This document shows, one piece after another, positions 31,916 to 63,435 of a stretch of 64,000 nucleotides of DNA. This DNA comes from an uncultured Nitrososphaeraceae archaeon. GTDB taxonomy: Archaea > Thermoproteota > Nitrososphaeria > Nitrososphaerales > Nitrososphaeraceae. Below the pieces are notes generated by a model, which searched no databases, was not told where the DNA came from, and saw nothing but the letters and a program-made list of their open reading frames with translations. Each line of letters opens with the position of its first letter. The stretch's first letter is position 1. Position numbers and translations under genes: made by a program. The stretch spans positions 32,001 to 96,000 of the forward strand of contig CAVSMN010000018.1 in the NCBI GenBank assembly GCA_963729045.1, in the 5' to 3' direction.

Positions 31916-32122
31916 TTGGTTGAGTCTGGTGTTTGGAAATTATCTCAGCCCATTGATGTTAATCTAATGGATTTCCTGTTAAAGACCATCATAGAATATA
32001 TAAAAGATGTAAAGAAATTTGATAACTATTACTGCCGGACTATAATAATATTGATTCTTCAGAAGCTAGGTTTTTGTGAATCAGAATCTAGATACATGTT
32101 GCACTCATTACCACTAGAATGA
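31916..32122 (+). CDS. hypothetical protein
   Basis: 68-aa TTG ORF downstream of an AT box; no motif. Confidence 0.4.
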   Translation: MVESGVWKLSQPIDVNLMDFLLKTIIEYIKDVKKFDNYYCRTIIILILQKLGFCESESRYMLHSLPLE

Positions 32123-52978: not shown

Positions 52979-54809
52979 ATGAATGAATATGAGAATTTTA
53001 AAACGGCCGATATTGTGGCTGAGGCACTCATAGATTGGGGTGTAGATGTTGTATTTGGGTTACCTGGTGATGGTATCAATGGTTTTATTGAAGCACTAAG
53101 ACAAAGACAAGACAAAATAAAGTTTGTTTTGGTGAGACATGAAGAATCCGCAGCATTTATGGCTTGTGCTTATGCTAAATATACAAAAAAGTTAGGAGTT
53201 TGTGTTGCTACGTCCGGGCCAGGTGCCATACATCTTTTAAACGGATTGTATGATGCCAAACTTGATAGTACACCTGTCCTGGCTATTACAGGTACCACCT
53301 ATTCTGATCTTATTGGCTCCAACTATCAACAAGATGTCAATCTTTTGCAGCTGTTTTCTGATGTGGCTACATATAACAACATGATAAACTCACCAGAACA
53401 TGCTGAAATGGCAGTAGATATAGCATGCAGAAATGCTTTGGGCCGTAGAGGAGTGAGTCACTTGACCATTCCAATAGATGTCCAAGAACAAAAATTAAAA
53501 GGTAAATATTCCCCACATAAGGTAAAGGGCCATACCTCGGATATTTTTAACCATGACGTTATTCCAAGTCCGGAATTACTAAGAAAGGCTGCAAATATTC
53601 TCAACGAGGGAAAAAAGATAGTAATACTGGTCGGTCAAGGAGCTCTAGACGCTAGTGACGAGGTTGTTACCATTTGTGAAATGCTTAATGCCCCTGTAGT
53701 CAAAGCCCTTTTGGGAAAAGCCGTAATTTCCGATTACAGTCCCTACAATCTTGGAGGTATTGGCATGTTAGGAACGAGTCCCGCCAGTGACGCAATGAAT
53801 GAAGCAGATACGATACTAATGATAGGAACATCCTTTCCATATATTGACTATCTTCCAAAACCCGGACAAGCAAGAGGAATTCAAATTGACATTCTACCTG
53901 AGAGAATCGGATTACGATATCCTGTGGATATAGGGTTGGTTGGAGACTCCAAACAAACACTGAATTCTCTGATTCCGCTCCTAAACAAAAGATATAAAGA
54001 AGATAACGAATTTTTAACATCAAAACAAAAAGAAATGAAAAAATGGGCAAGTTTGTTAAAAGAACAAGGCAGTCGGTACTGACAAGCCCATTAAACCTCA
54101 AGTCATAGCTACTGCTGTTTCCAATGAATTAGATGATGATGCCATTATCTCCGTAGATAGCGGAACCAATACTATTTGGGCCGCCCGGTATATTTTTGTT
54201 CATGATAAAATGAAATTTTCGCTCTCGGGTACTCTTGCAACAATGGGATGTGGTTTGCCATATGCAATAGCAGCCAAAATTGCATTTCCAGATAGGCAAT
54301 CGGTGGCTTTTGTCGGGGATGGAGGTTTCACCATGTTAATGGGGGAATTTGCAACAGCAGTTCAATATGATTTACCAATCAAGGTTGTGATAATAAAAAA
54401 TAACACATTAGGAATGATACGGTGGGAACAAATGGCTTTTCTCGGAAACCCCGAATATGCTGTAGAATTTACTCCTATTAATTTTGCAAGTTTTGCTGAT
54501 GAATGCGGTGGAAAAGGCTATACTATTACAGAACCAGGAGATGTAGGACTAATCATTCACCAAGCAATGAAGGAAAAAAAACCCACAATTATTGAAGCGT
54601 ATGTAGATCCATTTGATCCTCCAATGCCTCCAAAAGTGGAACCGGAGTTTGTAAAGAACATTGCGGAATCATTTGCAAGGGGACAACCATATGCCTCCAG
54701 GATAGGCTTAACACTCTATAGAAATCAGATCCATGAAAGATTACGAGGTCTCCATCATCATAATTCATTAAAAGATCATGATCACAAGAGTTCTTATAAT
54801 GAGACATGA
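52979..54809 (+). pseudogene. thiamine-PP-dependent pyruvate oxidase/dehydrogenase-like enzyme with a +1 frameshift near 54077
   Basis: FGLPGDG, RHEESAAF, SGPGA.HL.NG; after the shift TDKPIKPQ...VDSGT...SGTLATMGCGLP, GDGG...NN ThDP motif; the two track ORFs are one gene. Confidence 0.9.
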
Positions 54810-56056: not shown

Positions 56057-56479
56057 TATACGGTAAAAATTAGTGGTGATGAAACCCAAGGGAGATATAG
56101 TGTATGAGAAATTGAAGTAGCTCTCCGTAATGGGTCTTCACCTCATAAACATTTAATGGAGGATGAGGCATACTATGTTTTAGATGGAGATTTTTCATTT
56201 CTGTATGGCGATAAAGAGACAAGGGCTGGTAAGGGACAGTTCATATATGTTCAAAGATGGAAGTTTCACACTTACAAGAATATTGGTAGCTCTTCTGAAA
56301 AGTTGTTATTAATTATCACTCCACCACAATTTGAAAAATTCTTTGAAGAAATTGGAATACCAGTTAAAGACAAATTATCATTTCAAACTCCCCAGATAAC
56401 GCCTGCCATTATTGAAAATGTTGTAAAAGCGGCAGCAAAGTATGGCGTTGAAATAAAAATACAGGCAATTGACCAATAA
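56057..56479 (+). pseudogene. cupin-domain pseudogene
   Basis: YTVKISGDETQGRYSV*EIEV...PHKH..EDEAYYVLDG: in-frame TGA at 56105 and degraded 5' end. Confidence 0.75.
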
Positions 56480-56892: not shown

Positions 56893-58101
56893 CTAATTTT
56901 CTGCCAACTTGTTCTTAAATGATTTTTTCAACCAGATTGGAGTAATTATTGTAGTGGTAGCCACCATAATAATTATTGATGTATAGATATCTGTAGAGAG
57001 TACTCCCGATGTTACCCCTACACCGGCCACAATCAATCCGACCTCACCACGAGATATCATCCCTATCCCCACTCTCATCGATCCTTGTTTATCCTTAAGA
57101 AATATCAGAGATGGTAACCCACATCCGACTAACTTTGTGGAAATTGCTATTGCTATGATTATTCCAGAAATTATCAAAACATCTATATTAACACCTCTTA
57201 GATCAACTTGAGCACCTATAATTGCAAAAAATAGAGGTGCAAAAATAAATTGTAATTTGTGAGCATATTCTTCAACTTGTTTGACTAACTTAGTGCTAGC
57301 TACGGCCATTCCTGCAGCAAATGCACCTACAATCGGAGATAGACCTACATAGGCGGCAAGACCTGCAATACCAAAGAAAATGGCTGTAGTAATTCCTTCT
57401 ATACTACCTTTTGACCTCCACAATTTTTCTCTATGCAATATTCTTGGAATGAGAAAGATAGCACCAATGAGTAACACTGCAAATAACCCAAGGATTTTAA
57501 GAATTATGAATGCGATATCCATTATTTGAGGTGTAGTGTTACCTGATTGAACCATAGTAACAACAACTGATAATATGGCTATCGCAAGGATATCGTCGAC
57601 TATTGCTGCTCCAAGTATAAGTCGAGCCTCTTTTGATTGCATCCTTCCTAATTCGGTTAATACCTGAATAGAAATCGCTATACTTGTAGCTGTTAATGCC
57701 GTGGCTATGAGTAGTGTTTCAAATGAATCGAAGCCATATATTGAAAGAACTACAAATCCAACAGAGAATGGCACGATTACACCTAATGCGCCAACTGTAA
57801 ATGATGCCATTCCACCTCTTAGAAACTCTCTTGGTGTAATCTCAAGTCCCGCAATAAACAAGATTATGATGGCAGCTAATTCTCCGATATATTTGATGGT
57901 TTCATCAAGCACCACCAAAGGTTCACCTCCAAATAACGGGAGTCCACCCAAAGCATAGGGGCCAACAATTATGCCTGCTAATAATTCACCTAATACAACC
58001 GGTTGCTTTATCCGTTGGAATATTTCTGCAAATATTTTGGCAGAAAATAGAAGAATAGAAAGAGAAATGATAATATGAATAAAGACAGATTCAGATGCCA
58101 T
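56893..58101 (-). CDS. cation/H+ antiporter (CPA2 family)
   Basis: P.VLGELLAGIIVGP, LFIAGLE, TATS, AAIVDD, GAF.AG, RGEVGL. Confidence 0.93.
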   Translation of the reverse strand: MASESVFIHIIISLSILLFSAKIFAEIFQRIKQPVVLGELLAGIIVGPYALGGLPLFGGEPLVVLDETIKYIGELAAIIILFIAGLEITPREFLRGGMASFTVGALGVIVPFSVGFVVLSIYGFDSFETLLIATALTATSIAISIQVLTELGRMQSKEARLILGAAIVDDILAIAILSVVVTMVQSGNTTPQIMDIAFIILKILGLFAVLLIGAIFLIPRILHREKLWRSKGSIEGITTAIFFGIAGLAAYVGLSPIVGAFAAGMAVASTKLVKQVEEYAHKLQFIFAPLFFAIIGAQVDLRGVNIDVLIISGIIIAIAISTKLVGCGLPSLIFLKDKQGSMRVGIGMISRGEVGLIVAGVGVTSGVLSTDIYTSIIIMVATTTIITPIWLKKSFKNKLAEN

Positions 58102-58212
58102 CGACTACAAATATCCTAGAATATTTTCATTATAATAATATAACAGTAAAGTAGATTGCTTTTCTTAATTGTACCCAACGAACTAATTCTACATACACGA
58201 TGCTTAACAATC

Positions 58213-58650
58213 TTAGAACAAATTTTTTGGTATATCATCCAAATCGTAGTAGTAACCTAATATGTTATCAACCGTGTGTTCTAGCTGAGTATTACTGTTT
58301 ATTAGAACGAATATAGTTTTCTCAAATTCATAGATTTTTAGTATTCGTAAATTTTCATATTCTAAAACTACCCATTTTAATCTTCCAAGAATATTGTTAT
58401 TTACTACTGCTGCATGTGGTATTTTTTCTGTTTGAGGTGTTTTATCATCTCTGACGTGGTTAAGGTTCAGCCCTAAAGCTGGGACTATTGCAGAATCAAC
58501 ATAGTTTTTATCAATGCGGGAATTCTCGGCAATATACAATTCTTTCATTTGAGAAGATACCATAATAAAAACAGCCAAAATGTCATCGTCAACTTCTACT
58601 AGATGCCTTATTTTATCGTAGTTTTTATTTTCCACATCATATTCTTTCAC
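58213..58650 (-). CDS. hypothetical protein (possible roadblock/profilin-like fold)
   Basis: D.DILAVFI...LG.LKWVVLEYENL pattern; weak. Confidence 0.6.
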   Translation of the reverse strand: MKEYDVENKNYDKIRHLVEVDDDILAVFIMVSSQMKELYIAENSRIDKNYVDSAIVPALGLNLNHVRDDKTPQTEKIPHAAVVNNNILGRLKWVVLEYENLRILKIYEFEKTIFVLINSNTQLEHTVDNILGYYYDLDDIPKNLF

Positions 58651-58998: not shown

Positions 58999-59367
58999 TT
59001 ATTCTGGTTTCTTTGCATAATCTCCCATACCAGTAAAGTCAATAGAAACACAGGGTTCATCTCCTACTACCCAAGCATCGTGCCCTGGTGGGATTACTGC
59101 GGTATCTCCGGGTCCCCCTTCAATTTCGGTTCCATCATCCATTCTTACTTTCATCCTTCCGGAGATAATTACTGAAGTATGCGGAGCCTGACAACTATTT
59201 GTGTTGACTAATGGTTTTACACATTTCCCCCAACTCCAACCTGGCTCGAGGATTGCTCTACCAATTATGACATTGCCTAAGTTTACAATCTCAACTTTTC
59301 CCTTTTCAAAGGTTCTTACTTCATCAGGAGAGTCGAAATTTTTTGCTAGTAATTTTGTTGTTGACAT
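58999..59367 (-). CDS. cupin-domain protein
   Basis: FDSPDEVR.F, EPGWSW, CQAPH, SGRM, GD..VIPPGHDAWVVGDEP. Confidence 0.9.
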   Translation of the reverse strand: MSTTKLLAKNFDSPDEVRTFEKGKVEIVNLGNVIIGRAILEPGWSWGKCVKPLVNTNSCQAPHTSVIISGRMKVRMDDGTEIEGGPGDTAVIPPGHDAWVVGDEPCVSIDFTGMGDYAKKPE

Positions 59368-59412
59368 TTTATTATCAAAAGTAGGTTTGTAATGCTTTGA
59401 TTATAAGCATTA

Positions 59413-59445
59413 TTCCATATCTATTCCAAATTTATTCCAAATTTT
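59413..59445 (-). promoter_or_regulatory. triple 11-bp direct repeat upstream of the cupin TATA box
   Basis: ttccatatcta ttccaaattta ttccaaatttt; TTATAA at 59401-59406. Confidence 0.75.
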
Positions 59446-59619
59446 TGAATAACTCCAATTATTTGTATAGTACAAAATGATCTTGTCATGTCAAAAAGTA
59501 TCGATATACTAGCTTCCATTCAATGTATGTATGTATAAAGCCAACATAAACAAGAATATTTCACAGATTGTTACTATATTAGTAACTGTAATGGATTGAC
59601 TAAATCTACAATTTTTTTC

Positions 59620-60273
59620 CTATTGAACTTTGAGTTCTGCACTACCAAATAGAACCGAAAATGCCTTACACCATATCAGGGCGGTGTCATATTTTGACAA
59701 GTCAGTACCAGGAGGAATATCATAATTTTGATTTCCATTATTAGCTTTTAGTTTCCCAAGATTTACAAAATCTAATGCATTCTTATCTGTTGATAAATAA
59801 ACATACAGATCAGGTCCATTTGTTACCTTTAGATTTTCTAATCTAAGTACATTTGTATCGTCCTGGAGGGGAATAATTTTTGCTATGCCCTCTGCATTGT
59901 GAATTCCATCGTTAACACCGGTAAATACACCTGAAATTAGTGGTTGATTTGGATCAAATGAAGTAACAGTTTTATTTATAGATTCATCAATTTTGTTGTT
60001 ACTGCTATCATTGCTTGAATTGGCATATTGAATCATCAGTTGGTTTTTCTGAGAATTGCTCATATTCTCTGCGGCTCTGACCCTTTCATCCTCGCCCATT
60101 TTGCTATACTTCTCAAAAGATATTGAAGAAGCGGAATTGGTAGGAAATTGCTCATTTATTTCTGTTGATATGAACAATGGCGAAGCTAGATAAACTGTTA
60201 TCATCAAGGCAACTACACCAATAGTTAGATAAGTAATTTTCTTAAAAATAGGGTAATGTCCATTACCATTCAT
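59620..60273 (-). CDS. membrane-anchored DM13-domain protein
   Basis: G.F.G...H.AEG, LRLEN...NGPDLYVYLS, LG.LK.N.GNQNY.IP, IWC..F.V.FG.A.L. Confidence 0.92.
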   Translation of the reverse strand: MNGNGHYPIFKKITYLTIGVVALMITVYLASPLFISTEINEQFPTNSASSISFEKYSKMGEDERVRAAENMSNSQKNQLMIQYANSSNDSSNNKIDESINKTVTSFDPNQPLISGVFTGVNDGIHNAEGIAKIIPLQDDTNVLRLENLKVTNGPDLYVYLSTDKNALDFVNLGKLKANNGNQNYDIPPGTDLSKYDTALIWCKAFSVLFGSAELKVQ

Positions 60274-60308
60274 AAAGAATAGATTAGATTGAAAGACTAT
60301 AAAGGATC

Positions 60309-60341
60309 TTCCATATTAGATCCAAATCTGTTCCAAATATT
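60309..60341 (-). promoter_or_regulatory. triple 11-bp direct repeat upstream of the DM13 TATA box
   Basis: ttccatattag atccaaatctg ttccaaatatt; TTTATA (minus strand) at about 60298-60303. Confidence 0.7.
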
Positions 60342-60468
60342 AGTTTTGGTATTCTGATAATTTTATGTGCAAGTCAGTGAGTCATAATGATGCAAAAACA
60401 AGATCTTAAAAATTGAACTGAAAGGAAAGATATGATATACTTTTGTTGAATTTTAGATAGTGTAGGTT

Positions 60469-61686
60469 TTACCCAAATGTAAATGTATATATCTGAAATC
60501 CTTTGCCTTTCACATCAATCATTATTGATCTTGGCTCATAGTCGTCATAAAGCCCTACATTATATAGCCTTTGTTTGTCGACTATAACGTTTCCATCTTT
60601 TTGGACATCAATAGCATGATTATCAATGCCTATTTTTGACAGGTTGCTTTCTAAGATAGATACTTGTTGACCATTACCTGATGCAACAATGTTGATCGCT
60701 TTTGCATAATAGGTCAGAATGATTTTACCATCATCACTAATTAATTCCATATTGTCTTTATTGTTCTTCCAAATTCCATCAAAGTAAACGATATTAGGTT
60801 CTAAAGACGTTTTATTTGGATCAAATTTGTAGTCGACTGATTCATCCGGTTGGAAGCTCTCTATATTACCTAATGGAGATCTGGCTGTGGAATATCCAAG
60901 ATAAATTTCAGGGGAGAGATTTTGATTAGGGTCAACATAATCAAGGCTACCCGAAGTCATACTAGACAACATTGATTTGTTTAGGTTAAACGTTATTTCG
61001 GTCTTATTTTCTAAAGAAGCCTTTTCTGCAAGCAGTGTTTGAATGGTCTTTTCGGTCTCATTATAGCCGCCTTCTCCAATGTGATCATCTCTAATATATC
61101 CCTGAGAATCTATTAGATAGTGCCTTGGCCAATAATTATTGTTATAAGCATCCCATGTCTTGTGTTCGCTATCGAGGACTATAGGGTATTTGATACCAAA
61201 CTCTTTTACTGCATCCTGTACATTCTCTAGATTTTTTTCAAAATCAAACTCTGGTGAATGTACTCCTACAATAACAAAACCCTGGTCTGAATATCTATCA
61301 TACCAATCGTTAAGGTATGGAATAGTTCTAATACAGTTTATACAAGTATACGTCCAAAAATCCAAAAGTACTACCTTGTTTCTTAAATCAGACAGTTTTA
61401 CAGGTTGATTGTTTGCTGTATTTATATAAGAATCAATTCCGGTTAACTCAGGAGCCTTAACAAACCCACTCTTGTCTATGCTTGTAAAAGCGGTTTTATT
61501 TAACTTTAAGGTTACCAAATCACCACTCTTAATTAATGACTTGTCGACTATGTCTTCTAATTGTTTTTGTTGTAAATAGCTTTGAGAGGTATTTATATAA
61601 AAGTTAAAATAAATACCAAAGCCAGTAATTAACGAGATTACCGCCAAGGCAGTAAGAATTGCACTGATATTGTCTTTGTTCATCAT
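60469..61686 (-). CDS. membrane-anchored thioredoxin-like protein, DipZ-type (redoxin plus C-terminal domain)
   Basis: DFWTYTCINCIRT, GVHSPEF.FE, NNYWP..YLID, GEGGY, PEIYLG, RLYN, terminal YTFTFG. Confidence 0.92.
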   Translation of the reverse strand: MMNKDNISAILTALAVISLITGFGIYFNFYINTSQSYLQQKQLEDIVDKSLIKSGDLVTLKLNKTAFTSIDKSGFVKAPELTGIDSYINTANNQPVKLSDLRNKVVLLDFWTYTCINCIRTIPYLNDWYDRYSDQGFVIVGVHSPEFDFEKNLENVQDAVKEFGIKYPIVLDSEHKTWDAYNNNYWPRHYLIDSQGYIRDDHIGEGGYNETEKTIQTLLAEKASLENKTEITFNLNKSMLSSMTSGSLDYVDPNQNLSPEIYLGYSTARSPLGNIESFQPDESVDYKFDPNKTSLEPNIVYFDGIWKNNKDNMELISDDGKIILTYYAKAINIVASGNGQQVSILESNLSKIGIDNHAIDVQKDGNVIVDKQRLYNVGLYDDYEPRSIMIDVKGKGFQIYTFTFG

Positions 61687-61712
61687 TTAATCATTCCATC
61701 TCCTCATCAGCA

Positions 61713-62504
61713 TTAACTGCCAATCAGCTGTCCAACAAATGGAATATTAATGAGAAGTGTCAATTGATTGAAAAATATCAATAGTCCTATTACTATTAGA
61801 ATACTCCCCATTATGAGATTGAAATATTTCAAATGTTTTGTCAGCTTCTTGATTACTCCTGTAGCTTGTGAAAAGAACGCCCCTGTAATTAAGAACGGAA
61901 TTCCTAAACCTAATGAATATGCTAATAACAGGTTATAAGCTGTTCCAGGGTTTGTGGCAGCTAATGTAAAAGTGCTCCCCAAGATAGGTCCTACACAAGG
62001 GGTCCATCCCGCAGCAAATGCTATACCAAATACAAAAGAGGTGATATAACTTGTCTTGAATTTAGGAATTTTAGTAAACTTTCTTTCCATATTAAGTCGA
62101 CTTATTTTTAAAGAAAGAATCAAATTTGCTCCAAATGCGATAATAACAATTCCTCCTATGTAAGACAAATATTGTTGAAAATTGTATCCAATGGTTGTGG
62201 CAAAAATGCTATTCAGAATGACACCCAATACTGAAAATACGAGTGAAAATCCCAGTACGAAATAAATTGTATTTATAAAAATATTTAGCCGTACCTTTTT
62301 TGAAACAAATATTATTTGATTACTATTTGGACTTTTATTTTCTTGGCTACCTTGGACTTTTTGTATGTCATCATTTGTTGCCTCTCTAATTGATGAGCTG
62401 GACAGATAAGACAAAAATCCAGGAATGATGGGCAAAATACATGGAGATAAGAATGAGCCCAATCCAGCAAGGGCAGAAAGCAAAATGGGAGTTTCTATTG
62501 TCAA
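61713..62504 (-). CDS. ccdA: cytochrome c biogenesis / thiol-disulfide transporter CcdA
   Basis: AG..SFLSPCILP and AAGWTPCVGPILG, YSLGLGIPF; TTG at 62504 preferred. Confidence 0.93.
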   Translation of the reverse strand: MTIETPILLSALAGLGSFLSPCILPIIPGFLSYLSSSSIREATNDDIQKVQGSQENKSPNSNQIIFVSKKVRLNIFINTIYFVLGFSLVFSVLGVILNSIFATTIGYNFQQYLSYIGGIVIIAFGANLILSLKISRLNMERKFTKIPKFKTSYITSFVFGIAFAAGWTPCVGPILGSTFTLAATNPGTAYNLLLAYSLGLGIPFLITGAFFSQATGVIKKLTKHLKYFNLIMGSILIVIGLLIFFNQLTLLINIPFVGQLIGS

Positions 62505-62593
62505 TCGAACATTCCCAACCTTCTTTTCTTTGTATAGTCTGTGGTTGCAATTACAATTGTCAATGCAATACAAATCAAAAAGTTTTTGTTCAT
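62501..62593 (-). CDS. 30-aa ORF upstream of and overlapping the ccdA start (not in ORF track)
   Basis: MNKNFLICIALTIVIATTDYTKKRRLGMFD*; ATG about 25 bp below a TATTAA box; TGA overlaps the ccdA TTG (TTGA). Confidence 0.5.
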   Translation of the reverse strand: MNKNFLICIALTIVIATTDYTKKRRLGMFD

Positions 62594-62628
62594 GGAAACA
62601 CTAGTCATAAAAATGCATTAATAGTTAT

Positions 62629-62661
62629 TTCCAGATCTATTCCAGATCTATTCCAGATCTT
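62629..62661 (-). promoter_or_regulatory. triple 11-bp direct repeat (TTCCAGATCTA) upstream of the ccdA operon promoter
   Basis: ttccagatcta ttccagatcta ttccagatctt. Confidence 0.8.
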
Positions 62662-62764
62662 GTTTGACAAAAATGATTTGATTTTATTTAAAGGATTGGT
62701 GAGTTATATACTACTGCTAAAAAACAACAATCCAACAACGAGAATAGTTGAATGACTCGGCAAT

Positions 62765-63052
62765 TTATTCCAGAGTTATCTTTAGGAATATGATTAAGCC
62801 CGCCATTTCAGCAATGGAAATAGTAAGTAGATAAGGTACAAGTAAATCAGAAAATAACATTGACATGGTAATGTACGAATAAACAGATATTATGCTATTT
62901 ATCATAAGCAAGCTGCAAAAGAAGATCAAGCCTAAGGTAAAGTTGGCTCTGCTGTTTAGGTATATTTTTGCAAATGTAAATACCAAAGCACCTAGCAATC
63001 CCAAATTTACCATATTAATAAGTGCATTGATTGTACCCATCCAAACGTCCAT
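62765..63052 (-). CDS. small three-TM membrane protein
   Basis: Three hydrophobic helices, Y...R..FTLGL..F pattern; adjacent to the ArsR-like gene. Confidence 0.8.
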   Translation of the reverse strand: MDVWMGTINALINMVNLGLLGALVFTFAKIYLNSRANFTLGLIFFCSLLMINSIISVYSYITMSMLFSDLLVPYLLTISIAEMAGLIIFLKITLE

Positions 63053-63098
63053 TTAACTAAATCGTATGTAAATGCAGTGTAAGTATTTATTTATTTAT

Positions 63099-63120
63099 TT
63101 CCAGATCTATTCCACATTCT
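63099..63120 (-). promoter_or_regulatory. double 11-bp direct repeat upstream of the membrane-protein gene
   Basis: ttccagatcta ttccacattct next to an ATAAATA box. Confidence 0.7.
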
Positions 63121-63123
63121 AAT

Positions 63124-63435
63124 CTAGGATTTGTTTTTTCTGGATTTTTGTATTTTATCTTTTACTTCTTTAAAAGCCTCCATGTTTACCTCTAAATAAG
63201 TTGATATAAAGTACAAAATACCATATTTTTCTCCTTCCTTTGTAATTAGATTATTTTTTTCTAAAACGTGTATATGGTGTTGTATAGCCTTGTAGTCAAT
63301 TTTGATAATATCCGATAATTGATTGATATTGTATGGTTGTTCAATTAGCAATTCTATTATAGATATTCGATTCATGCCACCCCTTGACCCTGCAAATAAA
63401 AACCAAAACAGTTTCTTAGCGTTAGGGTCGGCCAT
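63124..63435 (-). CDS. ArsR-like winged-helix transcriptional regulator
   Basis: LFWFLFAGSRGG.NR..II..L...P.N.NQLS..I..DYKAIQHHI.VLEKNNLI...G.KYG..YF. Confidence 0.9.
   Translation of the reverse strand: MADPNAKKLFWFLFAGSRGGMNRISIIELLIEQPYNINQLSDIIKIDYKAIQHHIHVLEKNNLITKEGEKYGILYFISTYLEVNMEAFKEVKDKIQKSRKNKS

Follow-up and report, generated by a model that had tools for sequence, protein, structure and literature searches.

A predicted archaeal regulon marked by 11-bp direct repeats, with an ArsR-like winged-helix protein and a DUF8036 membrane protein

Among the described systems closest to the locus considered here, TFB-RF1 of Pyrococcus furiosus activates transcription from just upstream of the TFB recognition element (BRE) (PMC5937170), and in mycobacteria the SigK-RskA pair (PMC9861118) is a regulator and its partner that control dipZ together with exported proteins. 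The present analysis concerns a window of 64,000 nucleotides (nt; the whole stretch of DNA analysed), positions 32,001 to 96,000 of contig CAVSMN010000018.1 in assembly GCA_963729045.1, from an uncultured Nitrososphaeraceae archaeon whose genome is Nitrosocosmicus-like, 2.85 Mb in size and 87% complete. In this window the gene of an ArsR-like winged helix-turn-helix (wHTH) protein adjoins that of a small membrane protein of family DUF8036, and tandem 11-bp repeats stand at the promoters of the membrane-protein gene, of ccdA and the dipZ-like thioredoxin gene behind it, of a DM13 gene and of a cupin gene. A sequence-only reading of the same DNA had proposed that these genes form a regulon, which is borne out by the arrays, their fixed spacing and their conservation, and the set can be regarded as the predicted, conserved regulon of a wHTH-DUF8036 module.

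Repeat arrays and their conservation

Re-reading of the sequence recovered four arrays where they had been located before, all in a single orientation and with a period of 11 bp, the unit on the gene strand being nAGATHTGGAA. Three copies precede the cupin gene (59413..59445, minus strand; AAAATTTGGAA/TAAATTTGGAA/TAGATATGGAA; TATA box 59400-59407), three the DM13 gene (60309..60341, minus strand; AATATTTGGAA/CAGATTTGGAT/CTAATATGGAA; TATA box 60296-60303, the ATG lying 30 nt further on), three the ccdA-dipZ pair (62629..62661, minus strand; AAGATCTGGAA/TAGATCTGGAA/TAGATCTGGAA; TATA box 62616-62623) and two the membrane-protein gene (63099..63120, minus strand; AGAATGTGGAA/TAGATCTGGAA; TATA-like box 63086-63093), which by the array in its promoter is itself a target, as had been supposed. 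The consensus proposed earlier describes the copies broadly, although the DM13 copies and the distal copy of the membrane-gene array are more degenerate than it; likewise, the placement of the arrays just upstream of the TATA box was correct, but the distance is exactly 5 bp at all four promoters and not about 10 bp.

Single copies of the repeat are not enriched: the window holds 58, and shuffled sequence gave 49.0 +/- 6.6. Triple RATHTGG at a period of 11 occurs twice in the 2.85-Mb genome, where 0.002 occurrences would be expected, both of them in the studied locus, and no triple occurs in that genome at periods 10, 12 or 13. When the genome was scanned with a matrix built from 53 copies, all from other genomes, together with a TATA-like box placed 5 bp downstream, the four promoters took ranks 1-4 of 72 candidate positions with scores of 51.0, 42.3, 32.1 and 23.3, the fifth position scoring 17.5. 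Further regulon members, sought as pairs of copies together with a TATA box, were not found in the source genome at its 87% completeness, and the reported absence of an array from the wHTH gene's own promoter holds (best pair score upstream -6.3). A core-promoter model derived from 917 upstream regions has the form R-N-A-A-N-R and then a T-rich TATA box, located some 30 nt ahead of the ATG; placed on this model, each proximal copy ends with BRE position -6, and its invariant GG falls at -9/-8.

The motif recurs at orthologous promoters. In loci fetched by the wHTH protein and not by the motif, with an array called at a pair score of at least 10 and only distinct upstream regions counted, arrays precede ccdA in 26/30, DM13 in 8/9 and the cupin gene in 6/6 cases, with 0 on the opposite strand, and the four ccdA promoters without an array have a TTTGGG variant where the array would lie. 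Across the genus a two-copy pattern gave 100 matches, part of which fall in coding DNA, in 31/34 genomes against 3 for the reversed control, and a scan of the family that required a TATA box gave 69 matches (one from the unpublished genome G543) in 55/120 genomes against 0 for the control. Arrays also persist on unlinked targets, DM13 and cupin genes lying 80 kb from the wHTH in one genome (G054) and a DM13 gene with an array more than 1.4 Mb away in two others (G014 and G079).

Elsewhere, arrays precede genes of DipZ paralogues, DUF7482 exported proteins, a methyltransferase, a CMD protein, one MsrB and a second wHTH paralogue. The DUF7482 proteins with arrays occur in some genomes of the genus (L121, L139, L146); the partial DUF7482 homologue of the source genome has no array. 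The paralogue, longer at 127 residues, is itself preceded by an array (seen near position 1500 of L277 and L278), which suggests a cascade or autoregulation. The expectation that msrB would belong to the regulon was mostly not borne out and msrB was rejected as a general member, since beyond the array in one genome no tandem array was found in 30 msrB loci fetched by protein (0/30), two of which reach a score of 14. The msrB of the source genome has one perfect copy and a TATA-like box about 146 nt upstream (G000:C11, site 72386, minus strand), and this single copy is not kept in close relatives.

Beyond the genus, the wHTH is found in 84/101 genomes of the source family (a tally that includes the unpublished G077), in 174/401 of the phylum and on 19 haloarchaeal plasmids, 17 of which were read, and in 52 of 66 non-redundant loci a hydrophobic open reading frame (ORF) comes directly after it. 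By the matrix, with 40 shuffles for each locus, arrays at p<0.05 were found in 11/20 loci from other Thermoproteota families and in 8/17 haloarchaeal loci; single-copy sites occur at some membrane-gene promoters. In a related family (f2), the membrane-gene site falls within the final codons of the wHTH gene; at loci L070-L097 and L177-L196 the 3' end of that gene contains both this site and a TATA-like box and so serves as code and promoter at once. Distant targets comprise genes for MacB-type ABC, ferritin-like, DUF4397, spondin, plastocyanin, CHRD and Lipoprotein_15 proteins, whose common theme is export and not thiols alone. The label of an envelope thiol-redox repair regulon was overstated and fits the source lineage only, because the wHTH lacks cysteines, the cupin lacks an N-terminal hydrophobic segment, distant lineages have the repeat before such other genes and msrB is not generally included. 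The proposed tie of DM13 and the cupin to CcdA stands as a shared regulon but not as a shared electron pathway.

The reader of the repeats and the sign of regulation

The ccdA promoters of family f2, which is of the same order as the source family and sister to it and which we take to be the Nitrosopumilaceae, permit a loss test. Of 31 genomes searched, 24 had a ccdA match, one of them (G022) belonging to family f1, and the TATA box was placed through the core-promoter model and the start codon, independently of the motif. An intact TGG stands at the same offset in 14/14 promoters from genomes with a wHTH-family gene and in 0/9 from those without it, core placement being poor in two of the nine. 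The nine wHTH-less genomes span five genera, three of which have wHTH-positive congeners; several of their promoters show one base changed in TGG with the TATA box unchanged, and a profile search confirmed the absence of the wHTH in eight, the remaining one (G456) holding a broken fragment. G443 has kept the membrane gene, and there the proximal ccdA copy has decayed and the site before the membrane gene retains TGGA, while in G271 the main wHTH copy is broken and both a paralogue and the site are retained. Because relatives without the wHTH have also lost the repeat, the wHTH probably binds it, in agreement with the earlier proposal. A lead on how it might do so is offered by residue 50 of the recognition helix, which appears to track the base after TGG: Ala or Gly goes with 194 GGA and 11 GGG, and Thr, Ser or Asn with 22 GGA and 40 GGG. 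This covariation comprises three changes on the tree, and only two well-supported independent pairs, which point the same way (sign test p 0.5); the pair test left out 18 of 77 array loci, which had fewer than two scored copies, a different residue at this position or sequence that could not be used. L061 is of mixed type, and the tree was built with the trait column retained.

That the repeat is recognised by some other factor, such as a TFB paralogue or an unlinked regulator, with the wHTH and membrane genes as neighbours or targets, we consider very improbable, given the outcome of the loss test, the joint travel of motif and gene pair on haloarchaeal plasmids and the behaviour of residue 50, although the last amounts to only two or three independent contrasts. 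It would be favoured by the site abutting BRE, which is read by TFB, by the 12 further HTH_5 matches in the source genome and by G022 and G019, drafts of 200-250 contigs that keep arrays and in which no wHTH or membrane gene was found. A different geometry of binding can also be imagined, in which the wHTH acts as a symmetric ArsR dimer on an AGATCT-N5-AGATCT palindrome; the perfect ccdA array does spell it, reading as an inverted repeat around GGAAT, and the ArsR-fold structural neighbours of the wHTH are dimers. The 53 copies argue strongly for direct repeats, as originally described: G at position 3 is present in 38/53, but its palindromic partner, the C at position 6 that would give the symmetry, is the most variable core base (19/53), whereas TGG is nearly invariant without a mirror image and the off-centre GG is found in 53/53. 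All arrays, moreover, share one orientation to the TATA box, and some membrane-gene promoters have a single-copy site, so that this geometry seems highly improbable even with the resemblance to the TFB-RF1 site (TCTG-N5-CAGA; PMC5937170).

The reading that we favour, with somewhat better than even confidence, is that the wHTH binds the arrays and activates transcription through TFB-TBP, and that the DUF8036 protein restrains it until a stress signal arrives; the arrays, their fixed spacing, their conservation and their decay after regulator loss are the parts read directly from the sequence. The head-to-tail arrays of 11-bp units, ending at the upstream edge of BRE, would seat one wHTH per repeat, all on one face of the DNA, and contact of the wHTH with the TFB-TBP complex would switch transcription on; the DUF8036 protein would keep the wHTH at the membrane, and a stress signal would release it. 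The output in the source lineage would be the CcdA-DipZ electron-export line, DM13 and the cupin. Activation is held with moderate confidence and appears likely because of the TFB-RF1 precedent, the invariant 5-bp spacing, the presence of additional copies only upstream, the weak TATA boxes of the window and the lack of a site at the wHTH promoter. Sequestration by the DUF8036 protein is suggested, at weak to moderate strength, by the pairing of the genes and by the membrane gene's promoter being a target, and as the membrane gene is itself a target the feedback would be negative.

Several observations weigh against this reading. The four window promoters have TATA boxes at the 0-7th percentile of 268 genome promoters, which were chosen for good model fit, so that the weakness of the TATA boxes is inflated, and the Fisher p of 1e-6 in the loss test overstates the association because kin are not independent. 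In the other Thermoproteota a period of 12 scored too, with 7 against 10 loci reaching 15 or above, partly because the site lies within the last codons of the wHTH, and the arrays in G022 and G019 count here as well. The structural neighbours of the wHTH are mostly repressors, and the proximal copy extends over the first base of BRE, at position -6, as would be expected if the wHTH bound the repeats but blocked TFB at BRE, the membrane protein sequestering it on a signal and so derepressing the regulon and its own gene. Compensation by stronger core promoters after regulator loss was not seen (p 0.78): the nine regulator-less genomes keep ccdA with a core no stronger, as constitutive expression would predict, and in family f2 the ccdA core promoters come close to the consensus as it is, a state that fits a repressor equally well. 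The wHTH has, in addition, a weak match to the SdpR model (28.5 bits, cut-off 100), and SdpI sequesters SdpR (PMC2910880). A steric repressor, however, needs no invariant spacing, and here 5 bp is kept across three archaeal groups; neither the TATA box nor the start is covered by a copy, the wHTH promoter is without a site, and an SdpI family match is found in 0/52 membrane proteins. Repression appears a less likely alternative to activation.

Genes of the locus and its surroundings

Family matches agree with the gene identities assigned earlier (cupin, DM13, DipZ-like thioredoxin, CcdA and HTH_5). The likely repeat binder (63124..63435, minus strand) is an ArsR-like winged-helix protein of 103 residues without cysteine that matches Pfam HTH_5 at E 4e-8 (33.4 bits, cut-off 22); its structure model (pLDDT, the predicted local distance difference test, 94) has the ArsR/SmtB fold with structural neighbours at about 17% identity, and its nearest named relatives are Candidatus Nitrosocosmicus records at 79-96% identity, which places the source among the soil ammonia oxidisers of that group. 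A second, frameshifted wHTH copy lies elsewhere in the source genome (G000:C9:161353-161520). The predicted partner of the 103-residue wHTH (62765..63052, minus strand) is a membrane protein of 95 residues, modelled as three helices and assigned to DUF8036 (PF26119, found on 46/46 homologues; Atlas score 0.96), and a fold search with its model gave no match at E<=0.001.

CcdA/DsbD (61713..62504, minus strand; 263 residues) probably starts at the TTG at 62504 and has two transmembrane cysteines, Cys22 and Cys170, and the membrane-anchored thioredoxin (60469..61686, minus strand), whose gene lies 26 bp behind ccdA without an array of its own, has a CxxC at 115-118 and a Thioredoxin_10 match, features consistent with the assignment of the two as CcdA and a DipZ-like thioredoxin; the best solved relative of the latter is mycobacterial DipZ (E 2.5e-50). 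The ccdA leader contains a hydrophobic ORF of 30 codons (62501..62593, minus strand), absent from the earlier reading, that starts 30 nt after the TATA box and whose stop overlaps the likely ccdA start. It may be a small protein or a translational coupling element; comparable ORFs of 25-36 codons were seen in 9/10 long-leader ccdA promoters. Two other candidates were rejected there, a Cys-rich N-terminal CcdA extension from the TTG at 62573, whose reading frame is without conservation, and a conserved hairpin, as folds vary among relatives. The DM13 protein (59620..60273, minus strand; 217 residues, PF10517 at E 9e-20) is N-terminally anchored, and the cupin (58999..59367, minus strand; 122 residues, three cysteines) has no evident signal sequence and, judged from its sequence, looks cytoplasmic. 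The cupin gene is covered, and the membrane gene partly covered, by contigs of two soil RNA runs; as these carry no level, strand or start information they were not used as evidence.

After the cluster come a Na+/H+ antiporter and a 145-residue ORF without family match, both without arrays (56893-58650, minus strand). A thiamine-dependent oxidase-like gene is apparently split in two ORFs (52979-54809, plus strand) and a further cupin ORF is apparently truncated at its start (56070-56479, plus strand), which may reflect frameshifts or assembly errors.

Comparison with known systems

Literature searches, with most subscription journals outside their reach, found no published description of the wHTH-DUF8036 family, its motif or its regulon. 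A predicted operator and regulon can now be assigned to this uncharacterised archaeal regulator family and a role proposed for DUF8036, with DM13 and the cupin placed in one regulon with CcdA-DipZ; as far as the searches reach, this is the first handle on how ammonia-oxidising archaea control the transcription of their redox-envelope genes. Haloarchaea have genetics, and since module and motif also occur there, both the sign of regulation and the signalling across the membrane are directly testable.

With ArsR/SmtB metalloregulators (CzrA, SmtB, HlyU) the wHTH shares the fold (template modelling score 0.60-0.63) and HTH_5, but it differs in its identity of about 17%, its lack of cysteine and its direct repeats upstream of the core promoter, and it scores 31.2 bits on the metalloregulator model NF033788, below the cut-off of 55. 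A palindromic operator at its own promoter was not seen either, the repeat being directional and absent upstream of the wHTH gene, where other motifs were not sought. PhoB/OmpR-type winged-helix domains bind direct repeats head-to-tail with an 11-bp period, and differ in that the wHTH has no receiver domain and works with archaeal machinery. SdpR/SdpI of Bacillus subtilis resembles the module in setting an ArsR-type regulator beside a possibly sequestering membrane protein (PMC2910880); SdpR, however, is an autorepressor to whose model the wHTH scores far below the cut-off, and the partner here is DUF8036 and not SdpI.

The resemblance to TFB-RF1 (PF1088) and PF1089 (PMC5937170) lies in a site at a conserved distance just upstream of BRE/TATA, in a regulator gene paired with the gene of a small membrane protein, itself one of the targets, and in an ABC exporter among the targets. 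At the four window promoters the BREs stand at percentiles 21-68 and the TATA boxes at 0-7. PMC5937170 gives a palindromic 13-bp site, in contrast to the directional 11-bp arrays found here, and a single autoregulated operon of pf1089 and tfb-rf1, whereas here the wHTH gene comes first and is without a site. The termini of PF1088, taken from the primers given there and the only part compared, are unlike the wHTH family.

The SigK-RskA comparison is one of analogy only: the pair form is alike and the thioredoxin here is nearest to DipZ, but the parts are without homology and the wHTH takes the place of the sigma factor. Archaea are not known to have sigma factors, and a Pfam search of the window proteins gave no sigma-70 domain match. 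The wHTH has no cysteines, whereas SigK senses via a disulphide (PMC7826278). By this analogy we tentatively envisage, as a possibility rated below even, an archaeal circuit resembling those of extracytoplasmic function (ECF) sigma factors, in which small wHTH activators, ranged head-to-tail next to TFB, and a dedicated membrane anti-activator that restrains them would control extracytoplasmic repair genes, converging with SigK-RskA on DipZ and spanning the archaea from ammonia oxidisers to haloarchaea.

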